DNA of 64,000 bases, from NCBI GenBank assembly GCA_035516255.1, contig DATJAL010000047.1:25198-89197 (forward strand), given 5' to 3'. Position numbers and translations under genes: made by a program. Below the pieces are notes generated by a model. That model saw only the letters and a list, made by a program, of their open reading frames with translations. It had not been told where the DNA came from and searched no databases. This stretch comes from Chitinivibrionales bacterium. Lineage in GTDB: Bacteria > Fibrobacterota > Chitinivibrionia > Chitinivibrionales > FEN-1185. Every line of letters starts with the position of its first letter. The first letter of the stretch is position 1. Of the stretch, positions 8,441 through 62,525 are shown one piece after another.

Positions 8441-8480
8441 CAGGGCACCCCGGCGCGGCATCCGGTCCTGCCTGGCGCGC
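8441..8480 (-). repeat. Truncated 5' fragment of the family-A element
   Basis: The reverse complement GCGCGCCAGGCAGGACCGGATGCCGCGCCGGGGTGCCCTG aligns to the first ~45 nt of copy d (GGCGCCAGGCAGGACTGGAGGCCGCGCCGGAGCGCGGTGCTGCC). Confidence 0.4.
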
Positions 8481-8634
8481 GGCAATCAGTCAACTACCGC
8501 ATTTGTCAACCCCTTGTCAAAATTAAACGCATCAGCAGCCAGACACCACCGAGGGCCAAGAAAGTAAAAACAAAAATTTTACCGCAGAGACACAGAGAAG
8601 GCAAAAAGATATTCCTGAAGTAACCCGTGTCGGC

Positions 8635-8724
8635 TATAATATCACCGCCGCATCCCCGCTGCACTTTTTTGCTTTACATTGGGGACGAGGCGGAAGCCGG
8701 GGGCCAGCGGGAAACTTCCCCCAC
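8635..8724 (+). repeat. X hairpin module preceded by a TATAAT box
   Basis: Sequence is GGCTATAAT-ATCACCGCCGCATCCCC...GGGGACGAGGCGGAAGCCGGGGGCCAGCGGGAAACTTCCCCCACC. It belongs to the same family as 24217-24310, 53444-53530 and 57467-57556. Confidence 0.5.
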
Positions 8725-8765
8725 CACATTATGTTCAATTATTCCATGTTAAGCAGGTATTTACA

Positions 8766-8803
8766 AATAAAAAAAACGGCGCCCGTTACCCCGAGCGCCG
8801 CCG
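8766..8803 (-). terminator. Rho-independent terminator of the DUF2723 gene
   Basis: On the minus strand, GCGGCGC-TCGGGGTAACGG-GCGCCGT is followed by a run of eight T, about 45 nt after the stop at 8850. Confidence 0.65.
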
Positions 8804-8849
8804 TCTTAATCACCCAAATCTTCTCTTGATCATCGCTTCGGCCGTGCCG

Positions 8850-11639
8850 TCAGCGGAACCTCCCCGTATCCTGCGCCCCCGGCCCGGGCAGCGGCGACCG
8901 TACGAGCCGCTGAAGCCGCGCCGAGAGCTCGGCCGCCCGCTTGTCGCCCGGATGCGACGCCGCGAACGTCTCGATGACCGTGAGCGCGCTGTCGTACTCG
9001 CCCTCCTCCTCGTATATCCGGGAGAGCGACACGCATTCGTTCCACGGGTCGGGGTCGCGCTCGACGATCTCCTTGAACAGGACGCCGGCTTCCCTGCGCT
9101 TGCCCTCGAGGTCGAGCGCCTGCGCGAGCATCTTGACATATTCGATATTGCCGGAATCGATCGAGAGCGCCTCGCGCGCGCGCTTCTCGGCCTCGGCGGC
9201 GCGGTTGTGGTCGGTGAGGAACTCGTGGCGCAGCATGCGCGGCCGCCAGTCCCAGGGCATCATCGCCACGCACCGGTCCATCGTGGAGACGGCGAGGTCG
9301 ACCTTCTCCCCGTACTCCGCGCGCTTCGAGGCCAGGAGCGCCTCCTGTTCGGGAGAGGCCTGTTTCGTCGGGCCGGCAAGCTGCCTCTGCAGCGAGTCGA
9401 CCTCGTCGTGCAGGTCCATGAGCGGCTTGCGGAGCGCGAGCGCCAGCTGGAGGTAGCAGGCGGCGTAATTGGAAAGCAGCTTGCGCGACGTCTGCTCAAG
9501 GTGCGACGTGCCGTCGCCGAGGCCGCTGAAGCGGTAGACATGGTCGAGGAGGTACACGGTCTTGTCGATGTCGATCAGCCTGTCCTGCGGCACCACCACG
9601 GGCATGATGCGGTACGCGAGCCCCTGCATCTGCAGGTACGGGCCGAGGCCCATGAAGTTGTCCTCCGACACGGTGGCGGCGAAATAGATGGGCCTGCGCC
9701 ACCGGTTCGAGTCCACGATGTTGAGCACCATCTTGTCCTGCACGCGCAGCACCGGCTGCCGCTGCCGCCCCGGAATCACGATGTTTATGCCCGCGTTGGG
9801 CATGACATACGGCGTGGGCTCGGCGAACGGGTTTGCCTCGTGGATGAGCCCCTCGATCTGGGAGTCGCTGTAGGAGATGGGTACCTTGGGGTCGAGGTCC
9901 TTGAGCTGCTTGATGAACCAGTCGGTGTTGACCAGGCTCAAATTGACAATACGGACATCCCTGCGGATGCCGAACGCCTCCTGCAGGGCCCACAGCGGGA
10001 ACGTGTCGTTGTCGCCGTTCGTGATGAGGATGCCCTCCCTGTCGCAGGTCATGAGAAGGTTGTAGGCGTAATCGAAGGGCACGTGGTTGCCGCGGCGGCT
10101 CTGGTCGTTTACGTTCTGCGAAAAGGGCAGCGCGGGCGACACCGCGAACAGCACCGCGCACACCGGCGCCGCGGCGGTGCGGACGAACTTTCTCCTGTTT
10201 GTAAACATAACATACATGAGGCAGCCCGCCGAAAGGCCGAGCCACATTCCCTGGAACAAAAATCCGCCGGCCCAGAAATAATCTCGGACGCGCACCTCGC
10301 GGTGCACCACGGGCATGGGGCCCTGCTTGCCGTGCTGCGACCACGCGATGTAGTCGCGCTGCTCGGCCTTTGTCCCGTCCGCGAAATTCATGTACAGCGT
10401 GAGGATGACGGTGGTCATGAGTTCCAGCGCCATGAGCAGCACGGCGGCATTCCGGTTTTTTTTATACAGATAATAAAAACCAAAAAGGATGAAACCGACG
10501 GGCAGCAAATACGCAAGCATTTTCCCCGCCCCGGCCGCGGCGCCGTTTTTGGTGAGGATGTAGGGCTTTCCCTGTCCGTCGTTCTGGGTGTCGAGGTCCG
10601 AGAAATGGAAAAACTGGGTGATGAAATGCCCGCCGAACCCCATGTTTCCCTCGATGCCGAACTGGTGCGCCCACGTGCCGCGGCGCCAGAACATGCGCTG
10701 GACCATGGTTTCTGACCCATACTGCTTGCGCTCAAGGTAATCGTTGAAGGCCTGCAGGGTTGCGGGATGGTTCTCGTCGATCATGGGGTTGAGCGCCGAC
10801 CGCACCGGGATGTACAGGTAGCAGGAAAACCCGACAATTGACAAAAGGGCAAGCCAGAAACAGAACGCCCACGTGGCCTTGTTCTGCCGGCTCACGAGCG
10901 CGCCCAGGCCCATCACCGCCACGGCGGCCGCGCCGCACATGTAATAGAGGGCGTTGTCGTACATGATGACACCGCACGCCGCGGCCGTCGTCCACAACCG
11001 CCAGTCGCGGAGTTTCTGTTTGTCAACGAGCGCCACGAACAGCGCCATGGGCGCCAGAACGGTGCCCGAATACATGTGGATGCCGATGCCCAGAAACGCC
11101 AGGTAGGTGGTAAGGAGGAGCAGCCGGTCGCGTTTGGGGTCCTTGCTTTGCGCCCATACCAGCAGCAGCCAGGCGTTGATCACGATCGGCAGCAGCTGCG
11201 GGCCGTTTACCTCCGCTTCCACCGAGTCGAAAAGCATGGTCCGGCCGAGCGCCGCGAACAGGGCCCCCATCACCGCGCCCACGTAGATGGTGACCCGTTT
11301 CCACCGCGTGTCGGGAATGCCCATGAACCCCACCAGCGCGCGCACGATGATGAGGTAGATGAACATGACGATGACGGCGTCCATCGCCACGGTGAGGAGG
11401 TTGAGACGGTAGGCGAAGTCCTTGACAAAGAATAACGAGGCCGAAACGACGCGGCCGATCATGATGTAGAGCGGGTTCCCCGTCGGGTGCGGGATCTCGA
11501 GCGTGTGGCAGGAGGCGGCGTATTCGCCGCAGTCCCAGAAGCTCACCGTGGGTGAAAGAATGTAAAGATAGGTGGCCATGGTGATGCCCAGCACGATGAG
11601 GGCGAAAATGGTGTTCAGCCTTCTGTGGGTCTTCTCCAT
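8850..11639 (-). CDS. DUF2723 family membrane protein (GT-C-like) with C-terminal TPR repeats
   Basis: The motif SPTVSFWDCGEYAASCHTLEIPHPTGNPLY and many transmembrane segments are typical of DUF2723. The C-terminal third is TPR-like. ATG at 11639 (MEKTHRR...) is preferred over the track TTG at 11693. Confidence 0.8.
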   Translation of the reverse strand: MEKTHRRLNTIFALIVLGITMATYLYILSPTVSFWDCGEYAASCHTLEIPHPTGNPLYIMIGRVVSASLFFVKDFAYRLNLLTVAMDAVIVMFIYLIIVRALVGFMGIPDTRWKRVTIYVGAVMGALFAALGRTMLFDSVEAEVNGPQLLPIVINAWLLLVWAQSKDPKRDRLLLLTTYLAFLGIGIHMYSGTVLAPMALFVALVDKQKLRDWRLWTTAAACGVIMYDNALYYMCGAAAVAVMGLGALVSRQNKATWAFCFWLALLSIVGFSCYLYIPVRSALNPMIDENHPATLQAFNDYLERKQYGSETMVQRMFWRRGTWAHQFGIEGNMGFGGHFITQFFHFSDLDTQNDGQGKPYILTKNGAAAGAGKMLAYLLPVGFILFGFYYLYKKNRNAAVLLMALELMTTVILTLYMNFADGTKAEQRDYIAWSQHGKQGPMPVVHREVRVRDYFWAGGFLFQGMWLGLSAGCLMYVMFTNRRKFVRTAAAPVCAVLFAVSPALPFSQNVNDQSRRGNHVPFDYAYNLLMTCDREGILITNGDNDTFPLWALQEAFGIRRDVRIVNLSLVNTDWFIKQLKDLDPKVPISYSDSQIEGLIHEANPFAEPTPYVMPNAGINIVIPGRQRQPVLRVQDKMVLNIVDSNRWRRPIYFAATVSEDNFMGLGPYLQMQGLAYRIMPVVVPQDRLIDIDKTVYLLDHVYRFSGLGDGTSHLEQTSRKLLSNYAACYLQLALALRKPLMDLHDEVDSLQRQLAGPTKQASPEQEALLASKRAEYGEKVDLAVSTMDRCVAMMPWDWRPRMLRHEFLTDHNRAAEAEKRAREALSIDSGNIEYVKMLAQALDLEGKRREAGVLFKEIVERDPDPWNECVSLSRIYEEEGEYDSALTVIETFAASHPGDKRAAELSARLQRLVRSPLPGPGAQDTGRFR

Positions 11640-24212: not shown

Positions 24213-24216
24213 TATT

Positions 24217-24380
24217 GGAGGGGGAGGTTTCCCCCTGGGGTGCAGCTTCCACCGCCTCCTTCACAGAAAAGAAAATGTAGGCCGGAAGCGGTGGCGATCT
24301 GCACCCGCACCCCTTCCTGGGTGCGGCCGGGTACCGACAGCGGCAAGATTCACACTTTTGGTGGGCGCACCCGCGGAGGG
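24217..24380 (-). repeat. Y-X module, inverted copy, starting 5 nt after the rfbD stop
   Basis: The reverse complement reads ...GTGTGAATCTTGCCGCTGTC...GGGGTGCGGGTGCAGATCGCCACCGCTTCC-loop-GGAGGCGGTGGAAGCTGCACCCCAGGGGGAAACCTCCCCC and aligns with 57375-57556. Confidence 0.55.
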
Positions 24381-39065: not shown

Positions 39066-39139
39066 GACGTCCCGGTGCCAATTGAATTTTAATCAACAGT
39101 CTCCCGTTGCTGACCTTTTCAACTGCCCTCCGGAGGACC

Positions 39140-39224
39140 GGTCGCGCAGATTTCCGGTTACGAAATCATGGGAAATATTTTGAAACGCGACCGGGCCGCA
39201 GCGAGGGGGAAACCTCCCCCACCA
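39140..39224 (+). repeat. Degenerate Y-X module
   Basis: CGAAATCATGGG (compare CGCAAATCATGGG at 57429) followed by ...GCAGCGAGGGGGAAACCTCCCCCACCAGAATTTTTTT. Confidence 0.35.
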
Positions 39225-39281
39225 GAATTTTTTTAAAATTTGGAAATGTCAAATCCCTCCCCTCCTGTCAATCATTTCACC

Positions 39282-39922: not shown

Positions 39923-40116
39923 GGCGCCATTATAGTCTGTTGGCTAACCAGAATTCCGCCGCCGCGTTAGGGGCGACGGAGGGTGCGCTGGAGCGCATTG
40001 CCGGCCGACCCCGCCGCAAGGCATCGGGGCGGTCCGGCAACGAGGCAATTAGCCGAGCCCGGAGGAGAACCGACCCGAACCTGAGGTTTACCGAAGGTGA
40101 GGGGAACGCCCATCTT
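39923..40116 (+). repeat. Family-A multi-helix GC-rich element, copy a (candidate structured RNA)
   Basis: 194 nt from GGCGCC to GGGGAACGCCCATCTT. It shares module order and helices with 52899-53082(-), 57100-57279(-) and 61264-61400(+). Hairpins include TGCGC-TGGA-GCGCA, TTGCCGG...CCGGCAA, GCC-GCAA-GGC and GGC-AATTA-GCC. Confidence 0.55.
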
Positions 40117-49680: not shown

Positions 49681-50382
49681 TCACCTCTTGGAATAATTCC
49701 CGCCCGCGAGCAACACGTTCGATATTTTTTCCGCCAGCTTTTCAAAGCTTGTCCTTTCGACAGCCGGGACCAGGCCCACGTAATTCTCCTGGATTTTCCC
49801 GAACGAGACGACCCTGCCCGAATCCGCCTTCAGGTAAACGTAGTCCGCGGAAAAATTAAGCGTCGTCTGGCTGAACACGACGTCCTGTTCCTTGTATTCG
49901 ACGGTCGCCGAATCGAGTGCCGCATTGTAAACGAACAGGACAAGGTCGCCCGCTTCGGCGCAGGGAAGTCTTCCCGCAGGACGCCATATTCCGGTGTAGG
50001 CATTTTTCACCCGAACGGAATCCCCGACAACAGCGGCGGCCTGCCGGCCGCACCACTTCACGCTGCGGAAGCATGAGGTCTTCGAAAGGTTTGCCGCAAC
50101 GGCCTGCTCAAAGAAACTGACGATCAGGGAATCTTTCCTGCCTTTTCCCAGGATCTTTTCCACGGAGCCCGGGAAGTTGATCGTGGAATTAAAAAACGGC
50201 ATTATGGTCAGATTGCATGCCGCGAGCTGTGTTCTGTCGAGCTTGACAACAACATACGTGGGAGCACAGGACGCCGTACAAAAGAATACTGCCATGAGGA
50301 TTCTTTGGGTAATTACTAGTTTGAGCCTTGTCAAAATGCGCCTCGTGTATTCTTTGGAGGTTATTTTCCAGTCAAGAATCAA
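49681..50382 (-). CDS. Hypothetical lipoprotein
   Basis: Lipobox-like ...ILMAVFFCTASC. The start is uncertain: TTG 50382 overlaps the ispG stop, and ATG 50295 is the alternative. No family was recognised. Confidence 0.4.
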   Translation of the reverse strand: MILDWKITSKEYTRRILTRLKLVITQRILMAVFFCTASCAPTYVVVKLDRTQLAACNLTIMPFFNSTINFPGSVEKILGKGRKDSLIVSFFEQAVAANLSKTSCFRSVKWCGRQAAAVVGDSVRVKNAYTGIWRPAGRLPCAEAGDLVLFVYNAALDSATVEYKEQDVVFSQTTLNFSADYVYLKADSGRVVSFGKIQENYVGLVPAVERTSFEKLAEKISNVLLAGGNYSKR

Positions 50383-51448
50383 CCTTGGCTTTTTCTTTGA
50401 TCAGTTTCTGCACATAGCTCCATAAAACATCAAGTAATTTTTCCTCCGGTACCTTCTCCTTCATTTTCCCCTTTACGAAAATCCGCCCTTCGCCCCTGCC
50501 GCCCGCGATGCCCACGTCCGCGTCGGCGGCCTCGCCCGGGCCGTTCACGATGCAACCCATGACCGCGATTTTGATGTCCGCCGTGAGCGGGGCAGCCATT
50601 GCCTCAACCTTTTCGGCGAGCGCGACCACGTTTATCTGGGTGCGTCCGCACGTGGGGCAGGCGATCACGGTGGGCCCCGGGGCTAGGCCCAGGCTCTTGA
50701 GGATCGCGATGCCGGCGTACACTTCGTTGACGGGATCGGAACACAGCGATACGCGCAGCGTGTCGCCGATGCCTTCGGCAAGAAGCGCGCCGATGCCCAC
50801 GCTCGAGCGTATGGTGCCGGTTCTGAGCGTGCCGGATTCGGTGATGCCGATGTGCTGGGGAACGTCGGTTTTCCGTGACAACAGGCGGCACGCCTCGATC
50901 GTGGTGAGGACGTCGCTTGCCTTTATTGATAAAATGATGTCGCCGAACGAAAACTTCTCCATCATTGCAATGAACCCGAGGCCGCTTTGCACGAGCGCCT
51001 GCGGCGTTGCGCCGCCGTATTTTTCAAGCAGCTCTTTTTCAAGCGAGCCCGAATTGACTCCTATACGGATGGGGACATGCGCGGCCCTTGCCGCGTCAAC
51101 CACCTTTTTCACCTTATCTGCCGCGCCGATGTTTCCAGGATTGATGCGCACCTTGTCGGCGCCCGCCTCGATCGCGGCAACGGCGAGCTCGTGCTGGAAA
51201 TGGATGTCGGCCACGAGAGGTACTTTTGTTCCTTTCCGTATTTTCGCGAACGCCGCGGCCGCGTTTCGGTTGGGAACCGCGACGCGCACGATTTTGCACC
51301 CGGCAGCAAAAAGCTTTTCTATCTGGCCGAGCGTGGCGTCAACGTCCTCGGTGGCGGTGTTGGTCATCGACTGGACAGGAATCGGCGAATTGCTGCCGAT
51401 GGGAATATTCCTGACTGTGATTTGGCGGGTTTTTTTACGGGTGATCAT
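50372..51448 (-). CDS. ispG: 4-hydroxy-3-methylbut-2-en-1-yl diphosphate synthase
   Basis: MITRKKTRQITVRNIPIGSNSPIPVQSMTNT...CPTCGR... ATG 51448 matches the usual IspG N-terminus; the track GTG at 51490 adds 14 aa. Confidence 0.95.
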   Translation of the reverse strand: MITRKKTRQITVRNIPIGSNSPIPVQSMTNTATEDVDATLGQIEKLFAAGCKIVRVAVPNRNAAAAFAKIRKGTKVPLVADIHFQHELAVAAIEAGADKVRINPGNIGAADKVKKVVDAARAAHVPIRIGVNSGSLEKELLEKYGGATPQALVQSGLGFIAMMEKFSFGDIILSIKASDVLTTIEACRLLSRKTDVPQHIGITESGTLRTGTIRSSVGIGALLAEGIGDTLRVSLCSDPVNEVYAGIAILKSLGLAPGPTVIACPTCGRTQINVVALAEKVEAMAAPLTADIKIAVMGCIVNGPGEAADADVGIAGGRGEGRIFVKGKMKEKVPEEKLLDVLWSYVQKLIKEKAKVDS

Positions 51449-51487
51449 TTCTTGGTTTTCCTGATGATAAATTATTCGATCCGTTTT

Positions 51488-51590
51488 CACCTCACCCCAT
51501 CACCCCGGCCCTGCGCTTCGCTTCGGGCCACCCTCTTCCCCTCTCCGTGGCGGAGAGGGGAAGAGGGGCCGGAGGAGCAGGGTCAGGCGA
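51488..51590. repeat. Family-C repeat containing a perfect 17-bp hairpin
   Basis: CCCTCTTCCCCTCTCCG (51531-51547), loop TGG, CGGAGAGGGGAAGAGGG (51551-51567), preceded by CCTCACCCCATCACCCCGGCC...GGGCC. Confidence 0.6.
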
Positions 51591-51660
51591 GAAATAACAG
51601 AGGCCCGCTCGCGCAGGCCCCCACCACGTGTTCAATCCGGAATAATTTCCATCACGCCGT

Positions 51661-52806
51661 TCACATCGCCTGCACCTGCAGCGATACCCTCAGCCCGTTC
51701 AGTCCCGACACCGCGATGCTGCCCGCGCCCGACTTCAGCTTGAACCCGTCGATGCGTGTGCAGAAGCCGTTCGCGTTGCCCTTGTACTGCAGGTCGACCA
51801 TGAGCAGCTTGCTCTGCATGTCCCAATTCCGCTCGTGCACGGCCGACACGTTGGGCACCCACGTGAGCGTCTGGATCAGGTCGTTCTTGAGCCGGAAGGT
51901 GGAAACGCCGCTGATGGTGATCGACAGGGTCATGCCGTTGTTCTGCTGGTTGTTCCACTCCTTTACTATTTTGTCAAGAAGGTCCCTGATCGCCTTTTGC
52001 GACGCCTTGGCGATGGCCTGCGTGCCGGCCGTGTTGGCGCTGACGTGCACCATGGCCGCGTGCTCCTGCGCCGTTCCCATGATGCTCCCCGTGGTGCAAT
52101 TGATGGCGCGGAGCGTCACGTCGGCCTGCACCGACACCATGCCGCCTAAATTCTGGTTAAGGTTCTTTGCCTCCCTGCTCACCGCGCTGCCCGTGATGAT
52201 CACCTCCGCGCCGCTCTGCGTGCCGAGCTGGGCCGCTGCCGCCACGTCGCCGGCGATGCTCGCCATTTTTTCCTGCGAGGCGCGGATTGCGGCGCTCGCC
52301 TTCGGGTCGACAAGATCGAATTCGTAAGGATCCTTCAGGAACTGGAGAATGGTCGCCTCGGCCGACGAGTTGGTGGGCTCCCCGGTCCCCACGTTGTTCT
52401 CGTCGATCACCACCATGGTGCGCGGCTTGTTCATGGACTCGATGAGGATGTGAAACGCGGCAAGGTCCTGGGTGATGGAGCTTTTCGAGAGCACGGCCTT
52501 GATCTTCACTTCATAAGACCCGGCCTCGCTTTTCCCTTCCGAGATTTTTTCGTAGCTTTTCACCGAGCCGATGGTCTTGGTGATGATCTGGTCTTTTTTC
52601 ACCATGAAATTCTCGATTTCGGTCTGCGAAAGAAGTATGGTGCCGATGCCTTTCTCAATGGCGTTGCGCTTTGCCGCCAGAAGCGCCTCTTCCGGGTTCG
52701 CCCCTTCGCCAAATCCCTCCGCGACAATGGTTTCGTCCTGGGCAAGAACTAGGCCGGCGCCGAAAACAAGCAGGAACCCCGCGCACAGCGCAATCATTTT
52801 CCGCAT
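51661..52806 (-). CDS. Secreted protein/lipoprotein with LPP20-like N-terminal domain
   Basis: ATG 52806 is preceded by GAGGAGGA. Signal peptide MRKMIALCAGFLLVFGAGLVLA. The N-terminal AEGFGEGANPEEALLAAKRNAIEKGIGTIL pattern resembles LPP20/FlgO-type domains. Confidence 0.5.
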   Translation of the reverse strand: MRKMIALCAGFLLVFGAGLVLAQDETIVAEGFGEGANPEEALLAAKRNAIEKGIGTILLSQTEIENFMVKKDQIITKTIGSVKSYEKISEGKSEAGSYEVKIKAVLSKSSITQDLAAFHILIESMNKPRTMVVIDENNVGTGEPTNSSAEATILQFLKDPYEFDLVDPKASAAIRASQEKMASIAGDVAAAAQLGTQSGAEVIITGSAVSREAKNLNQNLGGMVSVQADVTLRAINCTTGSIMGTAQEHAAMVHVSANTAGTQAIAKASQKAIRDLLDKIVKEWNNQQNNGMTLSITISGVSTFRLKNDLIQTLTWVPNVSAVHERNWDMQSKLLMVDLQYKGNANGFCTRIDGFKLKSGAGSIAVSGLNGLRVSLQVQAM

Positions 52807-52898
52807 AGCAATCCTCCTCTTTGTGACCGGAAACAACGGTGAAAGTATGAATATATATTATCTCAAAACTGGTGGCCTGATGTCAATAGTCTATAAGT

Positions 52899-53082
52899 AA
52901 AGAGGCGGGCGTTCCGCGGCTTCGCCACGGCGGCCGTCCTTCCGGTCTCGCCTTTGGCTCGGGCTGCCACGGCCCCTGTATGCCTTCAGCGAGGGCCGGG
53001 CAGCACCGCGCTCCAGCACGGCCTCCAGTCCTGCCTAACGCGGCGGCGGAGTTCCAGTTAGTCAACGCACCATCGTGGCGCC
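52899..53082 (-). repeat. Family-A element, copy b
   Basis: The reverse complement runs GGCGCCACGATGG...CCGCCGCCGCGTTAGGCAGGACTGGAGGCCGTGCTGGAGCGCGGTGCTGCCCGGCCC...GGGGCCGTGGCAGCCCGAGCCAAAGGCGAGACCGGAAGGACGGCC...GGAACGCCCGCCTCTT. Its core is about 90 percent identical to copy d. Confidence 0.55.
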
Positions 53083-53110
53083 AATCGATCGTTTGCAGCG
53101 TCAAGTATGA

Positions 53111-53156
53111 CCTCACCCCGGCCTTACAGGCCACCCCTCTCCGAATTGGAGAGGGA
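53111..53156. repeat. Family-C REP-like hairpin
   Basis: CCTCACCCCGGCCTTACAGGCCACCCCTCTCCGAATTGGAGAGGG. Confidence 0.45.
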
Positions 53157-53272
53157 AAACGATTTGTTTTTGTCACTTACTTTGTCGTATTACCAAATGA
53201 AGTGATGCAGTGGCGCAGTTGTCAAGTATTAACCAACAACCAAGCTAATGGAAATCTTTTCTTGTAATTGGC

Positions 53273-53530
53273 TATACTATTTGTCTTTTTCCGCCGTGTA
53301 AAGCTTGACCTGCCGCAGGCGGATGGTAAGCCACCCGGGTCCCCGCACACCACGAGACTCCGGCGCCAAAGAGGGGGTGTGCATATAAAATCTTCAATCA
53401 ATATTTTCTCCCTCTCCCATTGGGAGAGGGCGGGGTGAGGTCTGATCACCGCCGCATCCCACGGCAGTGTTTGTCTTGACATATGGGATGCGGCGGAAGC
53501 CGGGGGCCAGGGGGGAGACTTCCCCCACCG
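53273..53530 (+). repeat. Y-X module (with TATACT box and an inserted family-C REP)
   Basis: Parts in order: TATACT (53273-53278); TCCGCCGTGTAAAGCTTGACCTGCCGC...CGGCGCCAAAGAGGGGGTGTG; REP at 53408-53440; a 13-bp perfect stem CCGCCGCATCCCA / TGGGATGCGGCGG; GGGGGA-GACT-TCCCCC. Confidence 0.55.
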
Positions 53531-53558
53531 GAATGTTTCTTAATGGGAAAAGAATTTA

Positions 53559-54773
53559 TCAGAATCCTTGTAACCCGCAGCACCTGGTGCACACCGGCAT
53601 CAACCCCTTTTTCATCTCGCGCCGGAAGGTCTTGAACTTCTCGCCGTTCCAGACATCGTAGAACGGCGTATCGTTGATGTTGCCGCAGGTGTAGTCCTGG
53701 TAGTCGCGGCAGGGCGTGACGCGGCCGTCGGGAGAGACTTCGGCGATGAAGTAGATGCTCTCGCAGCTGGGATAGCCGCAATGCCAGGTGTGGTCGGTGT
53801 AGTAGCGCCGGATTTCCTGTTCGGTGGTGATATCGGGCAAAAACTGCGGCACCGATGACCGGCCTTTGGAGATTTTTATGACCTCGGCGATCTGCGCCGC
53901 GGTGGCGGCCGGATCGACGTCGTTGAAGCACGATTTAAGGTAGCCGCGGTGGTTCCGGGGCTTGTAGCCGAACCGCTCCTCGAACACCTTTTCGTGGAGC
54001 GCGGAGCGCTCCTCGGTGATGAACCAGCCGAAGTAGAACGGGTGCAGCTGCGTTTTGTCAAGGACAAGCCGGTGGATGTCGGCCAGGTGCCGGTGGTTGT
54101 CGTTTGAGATGACGCTGATGGGAATGATGAGCGGGAACCTCAGGTTTTTCTTTTTCTTCATGGCGTCCACCTTGTCGATGATCGCCATGGTCTTCTCGAA
54201 GTTCTGCGACGACCCGCCGCTCGCGGGCGAGCGCATCAGGTTCTGCGACGCCGCGTCCCATCCGTCAAGGCTCAGAAACAGCACCGACAGCGAGCCGGTG
54301 GCCACGAGGTCGTCGATGATGGGGTCGAGCGCCTGGGCGTTGGTCACGATGGAGCCGAGCAGCTTGTACTTGGCCATTTCCTGGAACAGGGGCAAGAGCG
54401 GCTTCCACATGGTGGGCTCCCCGCCCCAGATGTAATAGTACGGCCGGTCGCGCCGCGTCTCGAACACCACGCGCTTCACCACATCAAAGTCGAGCTGCTG
54501 CAGCTTTTCGCCGCGCGAAAGCTTCGCGTTGAGGTGGCCGTTCTCGCCCCATTGCCCGCACGAGCGGCACCGCAGGTTGCACACCTCGTTGACGCGGAGG
54601 GAAATCTGCCCCACCGGGATGTTCTTGTCCCACCGGTGCGGAACAAGGTATTTGCGCACCTGGTGCGGCAGCATGTGCCAGTAGCTCAGGTCTGAAAATG
54701 AAAACAGCGGCGGGACGATGTAGTTCCACACGAATTGCGTCGGGAGAAGGGCCTTGCCCCTGAATTTGGCCAT
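53559..54773 (-). CDS. Radical SAM protein with C-terminal SPASM/twitch-like Cys cluster
   Basis: CNLRCRSC (CxxxCxxC) near residue 65. The C-terminus reads PCRDYQDYTCGNINDTPFYDVWNG...MPVCTRCCG. 404 aa. Confidence 0.85.
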   Translation of the reverse strand: MAKFRGKALLPTQFVWNYIVPPLFSFSDLSYWHMLPHQVRKYLVPHRWDKNIPVGQISLRVNEVCNLRCRSCGQWGENGHLNAKLSRGEKLQQLDFDVVKRVVFETRRDRPYYYIWGGEPTMWKPLLPLFQEMAKYKLLGSIVTNAQALDPIIDDLVATGSLSVLFLSLDGWDAASQNLMRSPASGGSSQNFEKTMAIIDKVDAMKKKKNLRFPLIIPISVISNDNHRHLADIHRLVLDKTQLHPFYFGWFITEERSALHEKVFEERFGYKPRNHRGYLKSCFNDVDPAATAAQIAEVIKISKGRSSVPQFLPDITTEQEIRRYYTDHTWHCGYPSCESIYFIAEVSPDGRVTPCRDYQDYTCGNINDTPFYDVWNGEKFKTFRREMKKGLMPVCTRCCGLQGF

Positions 54774-54810
54774 GATAATTCTTCCTGTTCTATTTTCTAA
54801 TTTTTAATCT

Positions 54811-54960
54811 GGTGGGGGCACCGCTTCGCGTTTCCCCCTGGCCCCAAGCCTCCTAGCCGCGCGTTGCGCGTCTGCGGGGTCTCGGGGCACACCCCCTCCA
54901 GCAAAGGGGCGCGCGAGGTCGCTCGCGTTCGCTCGCGATGCGTCGCCCCTTCGCAACGCA
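54811..54960 (-). repeat. Diverged Y-X-like module upstream of the rSAM/SPASM gene
   Basis: The reverse complement contains ...CCCCTTTGCTGGAGGGGGTGTG...GGCTTGGGGCCAGGGGGAAACGCGAAGCGGTGCCCCCACC. It also shares CCTTCGCAACGCA with 43491-43505. Confidence 0.35.
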
Positions 54961-55145
54961 TCTTCTGCAGTTCATCCCCCTCCGCCTCCGGCACCTCCCC
55001 CTTGGAAAGGGGGAGTGACTTTACTTATGATATTCCTGCCTAACGCATCGGCGAACATTTATTCCACTTCAACCTTTACTTGCTCCAATTAACTTCAGTT
55101 CCAATTCAAAGAGACTTAAAAATATCTCCTGCTCATTCCTGTTTC

Positions 55146-57071
<1,926 letters not shown>

Positions 57072-57099
57072 AGTGTTCTAAAATAATTTCTTACTAAAT

Positions 57100-57279
57100 A
57101 AGATGGGCGTTCCCATTCTTGCTTTACATAGACACAATTATCATGGCGCCTGCCGGTCACGGTACCGTGCCTCCTTCCGGGCTCGGCTAGTCGCCTCGTT
57201 GCCGGACCGCCCGAAGTCGCCTTCGGTGAAGGGGTGGCCGGCAATTCGCTCTTGCTCACCCTCCAGTCCGCACTGGCGC
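57100..57279 (-). repeat. Family-A element, copy c (ends 28 nt before the ABC-F start codon)
   Basis: The reverse complement runs GCGCCAGTGCGGACTGGAGGGTG...TTGCCGGCC...CGAAG-GCGA-CTTCG...GGTCCGGCAACGAGGCGACTAGCCGAGCCCGGAAGGAGGCACGGTACCGTGACC...GGGAACGCCCATCTT. Confidence 0.55.
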
Positions 57280-57355
57280 AAAACATCATCCTGCGTATTT
57301 TGTTAATCTGGATTTCAAATTCTGACAGGAACGAACTGTCAGAAAATGTCAAAGC

Positions 57356-57556
57356 TATAATATTTTATCTTCATCCGCCGTGTAAAATTTGCGCTGCCGC
57401 CGCTGTCTCGCCAGCCACTAAGTATCTCCGCAAATCATGGGTGTATCGGCGCCAAAGAGGGGGTGTGGGTGCAGATCGCCGCCGCTTTCATTTTCATTTT
57501 GGATTAGCGTTGTGGAAGCGGCGGAAGCTGCACCCCAGGGGGAGACTTCCCCCGCC
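57356..57556 (+). repeat. Y-X module with TATAAT box, upstream of zur
   Basis: Parts in order: TATAAT (57356-57361); TCCGCCGTGTAAAATTTGCG...CGCAAATCATGGGTGTATCGGCGCCAAAGAGGGGGTGTG; a long hairpin GGGTGCAG-ATC-GCCGCCGCTT...AAGCGGCGG-AAG-CTGCACCC; GGGGGA-GACT-TCCCCC. Confidence 0.55.
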
Positions 57557-57576
57557 AGAAAAACACAATGTTTTTC

Positions 57577-57615
57577 AATTGCAACTGACTTGCATTTAAA
57601 TTTATATTGCAATTC
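57577..57615 (+). promoter_or_regulatory. Candidate Zur/Fur-family operator
   Basis: An AT-rich segment 20-60 nt upstream of the zur ATG carries the inverted repeat TGCAA-N5-TTGCA (57580-57594) and the palindrome ATTGCAAT (57606-57613). No consensus for this lineage is known to me. Confidence 0.25.
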
Positions 57616-57635
57616 AAGGAATTGCAGGAATCATC

Positions 57636-58073
57636 ATGAAGCTTTCTTCCTTTGCCAAAAACCTCGAACAAAACGCGTCCCGACTATTATCCGACCGCGG
57701 ATTAAAGAAGACGAAGACCCGCCTCTCGATCCTCAACCTGCTGCTGTCCTCCAAAAAGCCCCTGAGCCACCAGGACATCAGCCACAAGATACCGGGCCTT
57801 GACAAAGTGACCGTCTATCGCGTGCTGTCGTCGTTTCTCGATAAAAACATCGCCCACCGCATCGAGACGCAGGACCATGTATGGCATTTTGCCGTGTGCC
57901 CGTGCGGCCATACGGCGCACTGCCACCCGCATTTCTCCTGCCGCAAGTGCGGCAGGATCGAATGCTTGTCGGATGTAAAGCTGCCGGTCTGGAGCCGCTC
58001 CGCAACCGGCCATGTCGTGGAAAACCAGGAAATCTACCTGCACGGCCTGTGCGTGCAATGCGCGACACGGTGA
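57636..58073 (+). CDS. zur: Fur-family metalloregulator, probably Zur
   Basis: Winged-helix N-terminus (KKTKTRLSILNLL...) and C-terminal CPC...C..C metal sites. It is the first gene of the znu operon. Confidence 0.8.
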   Translation: MKLSSFAKNLEQNASRLLSDRGLKKTKTRLSILNLLLSSKKPLSHQDISHKIPGLDKVTVYRVLSSFLDKNIAHRIETQDHVWHFAVCPCGHTAHCHPHFSCRKCGRIECLSDVKLPVWSRSATGHVVENQEIYLHGLCVQCATR

Positions 58074-59757: not shown

Positions 59758-59830
59758 GAGGTTGAACGGTTGAAAAGTTGAGGAGTTGAGGAGTTTAGAC
59801 ACAGTTGACCGTAGACCGTCAACTTGAAGA
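59758..59830. repeat. Family-E repeat plus 7-bp hairpin inside the znuC-znuB spacer
   Basis: GAGGTTGAACGGTTGAAAAGTTGAGGAGTTGAGGAG (nearly identical to 62209-62243), then AGTTGAC-CGTAGACC-GTCAACT. Confidence 0.5.
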
Positions 59831-61263: not shown

Positions 61264-61400
61264 GGCGCCAGGCAGGACTGGAGGCCGCGCCGGAGCGCGG
61301 TGCTGCCCGGCCCACGCCGTTAGGCACATAGGGGCCGTGGCAGCCCGAGCCGAAGGCGAGACCGGAAGGACGGCCGCCGCCGCGCTTCGCGGCGGGGCGC
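61264..61400 (+). repeat. Family-A element, copy d (shortest, 137 nt)
   Basis: GGCGCCAGGCAGGACTGGAGG / CCGCGC-CGGA-GCGCGG / GCTGCCCGGCCC..GCC-GTTA-GGC..GGGGCCGTGGCAGC / CCGAG-GCC-GAA-GGC-GAG / ACCGGAAGGAC / CCGCCGCG-CTT-CGCGGCGG / GGCGC, followed by a T-rich tract. Confidence 0.55.
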
Positions 61401-61418
61401 ACAGTTCTTTATTTTTTA

Positions 61419-62208: not shown

Positions 62209-62525
62209 GAGGTTGAATGGTTGAAAAGTTGAATGGTTAGGAGAAAAACTTTTTGCCGGCCTCAATAACCTTACTGCAATATTTTTCATACCAGAAGTTT
62301 TTCAAACGATAAATTATGACGCACCGCTTGTCCTTTTTTAAACTTCTCACTCAACGGGGGATTGCTTCGCGGAGTTTATCCCGAGCCATGTCGAGGAGCT
62401 CGCAATGACACTTGTGGTGTTTGCTTTCAACTCTCATCTTAACACTTTCAACTTTTTACAACTCATCAACCCGTGTACCCGTCTGCTCGTCAACTTTTCA
62501 CCTTGTCAACCTTTCACCCATTAAA
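62209..62525. repeat. Composite spacer: family-E arms flanking a GATTGCTTCGC...CTCGCAATGACA type REP
   Basis: Left arm GAGGTTGAATGGTTGAAAAGTTGAATGGTTAGGAG (62209-62243). Core GGGGGATTGCTTCGCGGAGTTTATCCCGAGCCATGTCGAGGAGCTCGCAATGACA (62356-62410). Inverted family-E tracts TTCAAC...GTCAACTTTTCACCTTGTCAACCTTTCACC (62426-62525). Confidence 0.5.

Follow-up and report, generated by a model that had tools for sequence, protein, structure and literature searches.

What fills the 564-nt spacer between two divergently oriented genes, ABC-F and zur, of an uncultured Chitinivibrionales bacterium (Fibrobacterota; contig DATJAL010000047.1), and does it control either of them? The spacer lies in a 64,000-nt stretch of the contig, hereafter the window, whose numbering is used throughout. 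It contains a copy of an element that we term family A on the minus strand and, on the plus strand, a compound element, Y-X. A and X are structured, RNA-like elements, in which pairs are kept by compensatory changes beyond the level of slid controls. Probably, what fills the spacer is a single copy of a dispersed module, in which two structured-RNA elements unrelated to each other stand back to back, and the module is incidental at this locus rather than a dedicated regulator.

The module in the spacer is about 420 bp long (57143–57559), with A on the minus strand and Y-X on the plus strand around a short AT-rich centre. The A core (57143–57279) is a full-length match to covariance model R1 (86.8 bits, E about 1e-13) and has a conserved 5′ extension to about 57299. 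The centre (57300–57373) carries a 7-bp hairpin, CTGACAG-GAACGAA-CTGTCAG (57322–57342, plus strand), and overlapping -10-like boxes, TATAAT on the plus strand (57356–57361) and TATTAT on the minus strand (57362–57357). Y, of type 1 (TCCGCCGTGTAAA ... CGGCGCC; 57374–57448), opens with the string TCCGCCG at 57374 and is homologous to 53290–53381 (73%). X (57449–57559; covariance model R2, 116.3 bits) consists of GAGGGGGTGTG, an 8-bp stem, an internal loop, a 9–11-bp stem, and the hairpin GGGGGAGACTTCCCCC, followed by GCCA. Its hairpins finish at about 57557, 79 nt short of the zur ATG at 57636. In a blastn comparison of the spacer with the window, the other copies are matched at E values of 1e-5 to 1e-17, and the homology is seen in MAFFT alignments.

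The strings quoted in an earlier note on this DNA are all present, at or within 1–2 nt of where it placed them. The extent that it gave for A (57100–57279, ending 28 nt from the ABC-F ATG) has to be revised, as the 3′ boundary of A is 72 nt before the ATG. The closing helix of the 57143–57279 copy is intact (GCGCC/GGCGC), with its 3′ strand, GGCGCC, within 57143–57152 in the R1 match. A copy on another contig (L072:6018–6154) is 93% identical to it, and the two share the flanks AATACRCAGGATGATGTTYT and CATGAT; the likeness is confined to AATAC...GATGTTYT through ...GGCGCCATGAT. The stretch GGGAACGCCCATCTT at 57100–57116, 28 nt from the ATG, is outside both the R1 match and the stretch shared with L072. 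Therefore, it is the orphaned 3′ end of another A copy, one of a different subfamily (TT/AA type). The fragment (minus strand, ATGGGAACGCCCATCTT) matches the A 3′ end at 40098–40115, folds into a small hairpin with a T-rich tail behind it, and is flagged by a simple scan as a weak terminator-like hairpin. An A copy with a broken closing helix (GCGCC with AACGC) was considered and rejected, because R1 gives GGCGCC as the true 3′ strand.

Family A is found by nhmmer in 20 copies in the window and its four closest relatives, and in their alignment the closing helix alternates between GCGTT/AACGC and GCGCC/GGCGC. A two-block pattern from the conserved core locates at least 119 further stretches in metagenome contigs, most of them belonging to a small number of peat and wetland data sets. 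The pattern yields 97 full copies, 71 with the closing helix GCGTT/AACGC and 20 with GCGCC/GGCGC; in 80, CCA comes next. The core is 136 nt long and is composed of five helices. The closing helix, P1, is combined with a long irregular helix that has an invariant GGA/GAG purine loop; three hairpins lie within the long helix, one of them flanked by tandem G·A pairs, and the fifth hairpin leads directly into the 3′ strand of P1.

This structure is a manual drawing based on 25 copies aligned with MAFFT (A8). Standard pairs make up 87.7% of the pair cells, and 22 of 43 pairs vary on both sides. When the 3′ partners are shifted by 1–3 columns, the corresponding values are 30–47% and 2–8 pairs. Run over 668,023 bases of related contigs from peat and wetland, covariance model R1 detects 112 A copies. 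In the R1-fitted alignment, 93.3% of the cells are paired, 36 of 41 pairs are changed on both sides, and 709 cells differ on both sides; the slid controls give 37–45% and do not exceed 19 such pairs or 84 such cells. The MAFFT-based figure is more conservative, since the R1-fitted alignment leans towards structure. RNAalifold, applied to 18 copies in a raw MAFFT alignment, did not recover the closing helix, owing to misalignment of the variable hairpin, and was set aside in favor of the hand-drawn structure and the covariance models. In the window, R1 finds full A copies at 39964–40112 (+), 57143–57279 (−), 52906–53041 (−), and 61265–61403 (+). In one A copy of a related genome (L006:9791), helix P5 is enlarged to a perfect hairpin of roughly 21 bp, with the model match clipped at the 3′ end.

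X shows the same behavior. About 45 Y-X copies are found by nhmmer in the same element-bearing contigs, and R2 detects 61 X copies in the 668 kb. X has three helices overall, with Y in front, and ends in a terminal hairpin followed by N-CCA. Two of its stems vary freely yet stay complementary (GGGTGCAG/CTGCACCC, GCCCCCGG/CCGGGGGC, and GCCCCGAG/CTTGGGGC), and the single-stranded stretches around them, GGAGGGGGTGTG, GAT, GGAAGC, and CCAGGGGG, are invariant. The R2 alignment has 93.7% paired cells, and both sides vary in 21 of its 25 pairs; slid controls reach 45–57%. The G-run GGAGGGGGUG in Y-X could pair with the terminal C-run; all three runs are near-invariant. Y occurs in two types, with about 10 type-1 copies in the related contigs.

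Within the window, R2 finds six X copies: 57449–57559 (+), 24214–24324 (−), 53421–53532 (+), 8621–8728 (+), a variant at 54808–54906 (−), and a weak match at 39125–39226 (+). The copy at 8621–8728 belongs to a truncated module between two convergent genes, composed of a 34-nt A remnant (8445–8478, minus strand) and X without Y; GGCTATAAT stands in front of this X, and a canonical terminator (8776–8808) adjoins the module. A small palindromic element, CCTCACCCCGGCC...GGCCACCCCTCTCC...GGAGAGGG, is present at 53105–53160 and, inverted, at 53395–53435. One copy separates Y from X in the 53-kb cassette, and in L006 and L007 the element lies between A and Y.

An A copy is within 900 nt of 45 of the 61 X copies, and these pairs are head-to-head in 43 cases, tandem in 2, and tail-to-tail in none; 44 of the 112 A copies have an X partner within the same distance. 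The A / Y-X cassette is thus a genuine module, and the earlier proposal that a recurrent divergent cassette fills the spacer is upheld. The modules are 327–627 bp long. The distance from A core to X core is mostly 100–220 nt, of which Y takes 85–110, so the AT-rich centre is just 40–90 nt. The divergent doublet is not invariably A with Y-X, as head-to-head A-A pairs exist at L006 9532–9669(−)/9791–9959(+), L131 8309–8445(−)/8609–8743(+), and L120 4328–4488(−)/4611–4750(+).

The centre resembles an overlapping divergent promoter pair. In type-1 Y copies, a TATAAT-like box recurs 11–14 nt before the opening CCGCCG. The conserved TGTAAA in Y reads TTTACA on the other strand, with TATTAT or TAGTAT 17–18 nt beyond. 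Each arm would be transcribed outward from these overlapping promoters. The sequence TTGAC at -26 in 25 A copies is part of an optional 5′ module and was rejected as the -35 element of a promoter that would start transcription at G1.

Several features favor RNA in the stated orientation, short of proof. Among the non-Watson-Crick cells of A, G·A/A·G outnumber C·U/U·C by 157 to 18, and G·U outnumber A·C by 69 to 46; in X, G·U outnumber A·C by 40 to 18. A T-rich tract lies 3′ of A (48–69% T at +3 to +7). CCA ends 87 of the 112 A copies, and N-CCA, with variable N, ends 33 of 57 X copies. If the elements acted instead at the DNA level, as REP/REPIN-like or miniature inverted-repeat transposable element (MITE)-like repeats, the pairing would reflect single-stranded DNA hairpins recognized by a transposase or a nucleoid protein and the RNA would be incidental. 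The high copy number, the intergenic positions, often within 20–30 nt of stop codons, the paired inverted arrangement, the outward ends that both finish in CCA (making the module 5′-TGG...CCA-3′), and the element-bounded gene blocks rearranged among genomes are as expected for such repeats. We nevertheless regard a DNA-level role as unlikely, because the strand asymmetry is strong (G·A over C·U as above), the elements are no simple palindromes but branch repeatedly (A has five helices) and conserve purine-rich internal loops, and the arms are unrelated in sequence, not inverted copies of each other. Neither terminal inverted repeats nor target-site duplications accompany the modules, and no RAYT-like or multi-copy protein gene was seen in a limited protein survey in which RAYT was not searched for genome-wide.

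The elements could also be genes for trans-acting small RNAs with a cellular role, for example protein-titrating RNAs or tRNA-like RNAs with 3′ CCA ends that tRNA-processing enzymes would recognize, the multiplicity being selected for dosage and not selfish. The unpaired and junction nucleotides (GGAC·GGAG, the CGAG...CGAG tandem G·A pairs, GGAGGGGGUGUG, and GGAAGC) are conserved, the CCA and N-CCA ends recur, and promoter-like boxes lie upstream and the T-rich tract downstream. Moreover, the 5-bp closing helix of A is contiguous with the 7-bp P5 and may form a 12-bp stack like that of a tRNA acceptor/T arm. The tRNA-like features are the common CCA end and the stacked helices; no T-loop or D-arm is present, and ARAGORN over the window reports no tRNA or tmRNA at any element copy. 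Truncated and orphan fragments (57100–57116, 8445–8478, and about 55040–55052) are as would be expected of decaying repeats, and turnover between related genomes is high, so that a dosage-selected small RNA, while conceivable, seems rather unlikely to us.

Neither family is represented in Rfam 15. In the whole window, the Rfam search reports one tRNA and nothing at the elements, with no family at the gathering threshold there. In permissive Rfam scans of four module copies, no match exceeds 20 bits, and the best recurrent one, c-di-GMP-II-GAG, scores 17 bits (threshold 40). A literature search found no description of A or X elements. Both families appear restricted to one peat-soil Fibrobacterota lineage. 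In 55 genomes at greater distance, other Fibrobacterota among them, the surroundings of ABC-F (887,069 bases in all) have no A copy. The tRNA gene in the window (34904–34977, minus strand; Rfam 51.2 bits) is read by ARAGORN with a four-base anticodon, 'gcaa', implying an 8-nt anticodon loop.

Which elements a given spacer carries varies among the relatives. ABC-F orthologues in Fibrobacterota/Chitinivibrionales metagenome-assembled genomes (MAGs) from soil, fen, and bog (L005–L009) are 72–78% identical to the window protein and align from residue 1. The A / Y-X module is also present in L006 and L007, directly upstream of ABC-F in L007 as in the window; in L006, it includes the small palindromic element that the 53-kb copy has between A and Y. 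On the other side of ABC-F, the spacer shared with the radical-SAM gene is empty in L009; L005 has A there, L006 an inverted X together with A, and both L008 and the window have X variants. The diverged X of the window (54808–54906, minus strand) scores 33 bits and is separated from the radical-SAM/SPASM gene by 35 nt; the same spacer contains a fragment of an A 5′ end, 13 nt long, GCGTTAGGCAGGA (about 55040–55052, minus strand); ABC-F is therefore flanked by repeats on both sides.

Gene blocks bounded by A or X, namely a 391-aa/372-aa gene pair, ABC-F, and the radical-SAM gene, are differently arranged in three genomes (window 50372–57071, L006 6364–11926, and L007 3508–8746). The rearranged blocks, together with different A subfamilies at orthologous positions, suggest recombination between copies. 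The window and its nearest relatives have roughly one element copy per 6–15 kb. We propose that the module has spread or been copied through the genome, behaving much like a mobile element.

A number of observations weigh against this reading of the module. The 43 modules have no target-site duplications or terminal inverted repeats, and their ends share just TGG...CCA. An all-against-all comparison of 2172 open reading frames (ORFs) in 125 element-bearing loci yields no multi-copy protein family. Pfam detects no transposase-like, reverse-transcriptase, or other mobile-element protein among 18 window proteins, which are housekeeping only. In view of the missing repeats, duplications, and multi-copy protein gene, mobility is argued from distribution alone, and the element density is inflated because the metagenome loci were chosen for carrying an A copy. 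The promoters are known as consensus matches only, and a position profile of the 90 nt upstream of 107 A copies has no promoter at a fixed distance. As to structure, single-sequence folding energies beat those of shuffled sequences only modestly on either strand (z −1.6 to −2.2, too little to discriminate), the pair counts from alignments A9 and A11 lean towards structure because the alignments are model-fitted, and the bias of G·U over A·C is just 1.5- to 2.2-fold.

A bolder version would make the A | Y-X module a new kind of self-propagating element without a protein gene of its own. Its outward folded RNAs would bear tRNA-like 3′-CCA tags for host enzymes that process tRNA or copy nucleic acids, and its spread would rely on recombination or on an intermediate of RNA or single-stranded form, with promoters and 5′ or 3′ untranslated-region (UTR) structures being donated to neighboring genes on the way. 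We consider this version improbable.

Does the module nonetheless serve its neighbors as regulatory leaders? The earlier note had proposed that A and Y-X, as long structured leaders of repeat origin, carry the expression of ABC-F and of the zinc-uptake operon. Its gene identities are upheld by Pfam. ABC-F (55146–57071, minus strand) encodes a Uup-like ATPase of 641 aa with a C-terminal coiled-coil domain (ABC_tran twice, ABC_tran_Xtn, and ABC_tran_CTD). Zur (57636–58073, plus strand; FUR) is a Fur-family regulator of 145 aa, the first product of zur-znuA-znuC-znuB, whose downstream genes match ZnuA, ABC_tran (znuC), and ABC-3 permease (znuB). Several soil metagenomes have contigs that code for the identical Zur, in the same gene order.

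As a general description, the leader proposal fails. With simple gene calls based on third-position GC content (GC3) on the element-bearing contigs, A points towards a gene start in 46 cases and towards the 3′ end of a convergent gene in 46; X points towards a gene start in 20 and towards a gene 3′ end in 38 of 58. Stop codons lie a median of 20 nt from X and 32 nt from A. Of the four clear Y-X or X copies in the window, three (Y-X at 24 kb and at 53 kb, X at 8.6 kb) lead into a convergent gene at its 3′ end. The genes next to the elements, ABC-F, radical SAM, RmlD, a TadA-like deaminase, a response regulator, CinA, and DUF218, are functionally unrelated. A and Y-X therefore lack the consistent orientation upstream of related genes that marks riboswitches and leaders.

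At the ABC-F side of the spacer, the proposal fares better. A sigma-70-type match on the minus strand, TTTACA (57386–57381)-18-TATTAT (57362–57357), agrees with the consensus at 10 of 12 positions; it lies upstream of A and is the sole good one on that strand. In the 72 nt between A and the ABC-F ATG, no convincing promoter is seen. Since the only good match is upstream of A, ABC-F is probably transcribed through A, and A and the orphan fragment are probably within its 5′ UTR. In L006 and L007, an A copy likewise lies just upstream of ABC-F in the same orientation. We suggest that ABC-F, having no evident promoter of its own, would use the A-side promoter of the module, giving a 5′ UTR of about 280 nt.

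At the zur side, the result is the opposite. A candidate promoter (-35 TTGCAA, -10 TATATT; 57579–57608, plus strand) was found downstream of X by a promoter scan and is conserved in L005 and L008. It is overlapped by the palindrome TGCAA-N5-TTGCA (57580–57594, plus strand), a candidate Zur operator. The block TTGCAACT(G/C)ACTTGCATTT is kept at equal distance from zur in L005, L008, and the window, so that, as judged from sequence, both palindrome and promoter match are kept in three genomes at a fixed distance from the gene. Upstream of this block, L005 has an A-like 3′ half and L008, where the window has the module between ABC-F and zur, has about 0.9 kb with two small ORFs (9010–9800). The candidate promoter being downstream of X and kept in relatives that lack Y-X there, the zur transcript probably does not include Y-X; the zinc-regulated transcript most likely starts near 57615. 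The gene would thus keep its own promoter and palindromic operator. As in Zur-regulated znu promoters, an AT-rich inverted repeat overlaps the -35/-10 region, here immediately before zur-znuACB and conserved in relatives. To our knowledge, the palindrome differs from the characterized Zur boxes, and it remains a candidate operator. Read-through from Y-X could supply some unregulated zur transcription.

Taken as cis-regulatory leaders controlling ABC-F and the zur-znu operon, A and Y-X would explain the same-orientation A upstream of ABC-F in three genomes, the position of the best minus-strand promoter match, the direction of Y-X towards zur, and the X variant that, in both the window and L008, precedes the radical-SAM gene by 35 nt. 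Set against the even orientation of A, the excess of X at gene 3′ ends, the unrelated neighbors, and a conserved zur promoter and candidate operator downstream of X, these points leave a leader function very unlikely.

The incidental, dispersed module that we favor has a close parallel. The TwoAYGGAY RNAs of Pseudomonas form divergent doublets in 68% of cases, have arrays of 5–6-nt repeats upstream, and are suspected of mobile-element-like expansion; their copy number differs between relatives, and their function is unknown (bioRxiv 10.64898/2026.09.22.753630). They appear to be the closest behavioral analogue of A / Y-X. Both are preferentially divergent doublets (68% there versus 43 of 45 here), with members at most a few hundred bp apart, and both are multi-copy, vary in number between relatives, and appear to expand in the manner of mobile elements. 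Both also have short repeat arrays upstream, here GTTGA-N3 before A: arrays of at least three units occur in the 150 nt upstream of 9 of 108 A copies, versus 0.7% of AT-rich background windows, and are strand-specific. Two further GTTGA arrays in the window, with a spacing of about 8 nt, are at 59759–59794 (the znuC/znuB spacer) and 62477–62512 (inverted). The two systems differ in sequence and fold. TwoAYGGAY (RF01731) gives no match at E values up to 10, and the consensuses here have no AYGGAY loops; the pairs here are usually heterotypic, the host is a Fibrobacterota bacterium, and the 3′ ends are CCA.

Other repeat classes are less similar. REP/BIME/REPIN elements of Proteobacteria are also high-copy intergenic repeats, often 3′ of genes and in inverted pairs. 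REPs can stabilize or terminate adjacent transcripts and mediate rearrangements. However, REPs are imperfect palindromes of 20–40 nt, and a REPIN is an inverted pair of the same unit mobilized by a RAYT, whereas the units here are multi-helix, 136–200 nt long, and unrelated between arms, with no RAYT seen (not searched genome-wide). Transcribed MITEs and similar repeats (Correia/NEMIS, ERIC, RUP, and BOX) resemble the module in being dispersed, non-coding, equipped with promoters or terminators, and able to alter expression of neighbors, but MITEs have terminal inverted repeats and target-site duplications, which the 43 modules lack. HEARO/IscB and TnpB omega RNAs are structured RNAs of 130–300 nt, possibly multi-copy, at transposon ends; here there is no Rfam HEARO or IS605-orfB match, and no IscB, TnpB, or TnpA is adjacent in the window.

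Apart from the module, the window contains three tandem units of 127–141 nt, 69–72% identical, at 31356–31752 within a large ORF (29512–32448); they presumably encode a repeated protein domain.

For annotation, the GC-rich islands in the AT-rich spacers of Chitinivibrionales MAGs are not to be called riboswitches or gene-specific leaders. A and X are two well-supported structured RNA families new to Rfam, with more than 100 natural variants usable for structure work. Their clear module architecture and concrete loci (ABC-F, the radical-SAM gene, and zur) lend themselves to gauging the effects of such repeats on neighboring genes. Together, they are a second, independent example, from another phylum, of the recently noticed arrangement of multi-copy structured RNAs as divergent doublets.

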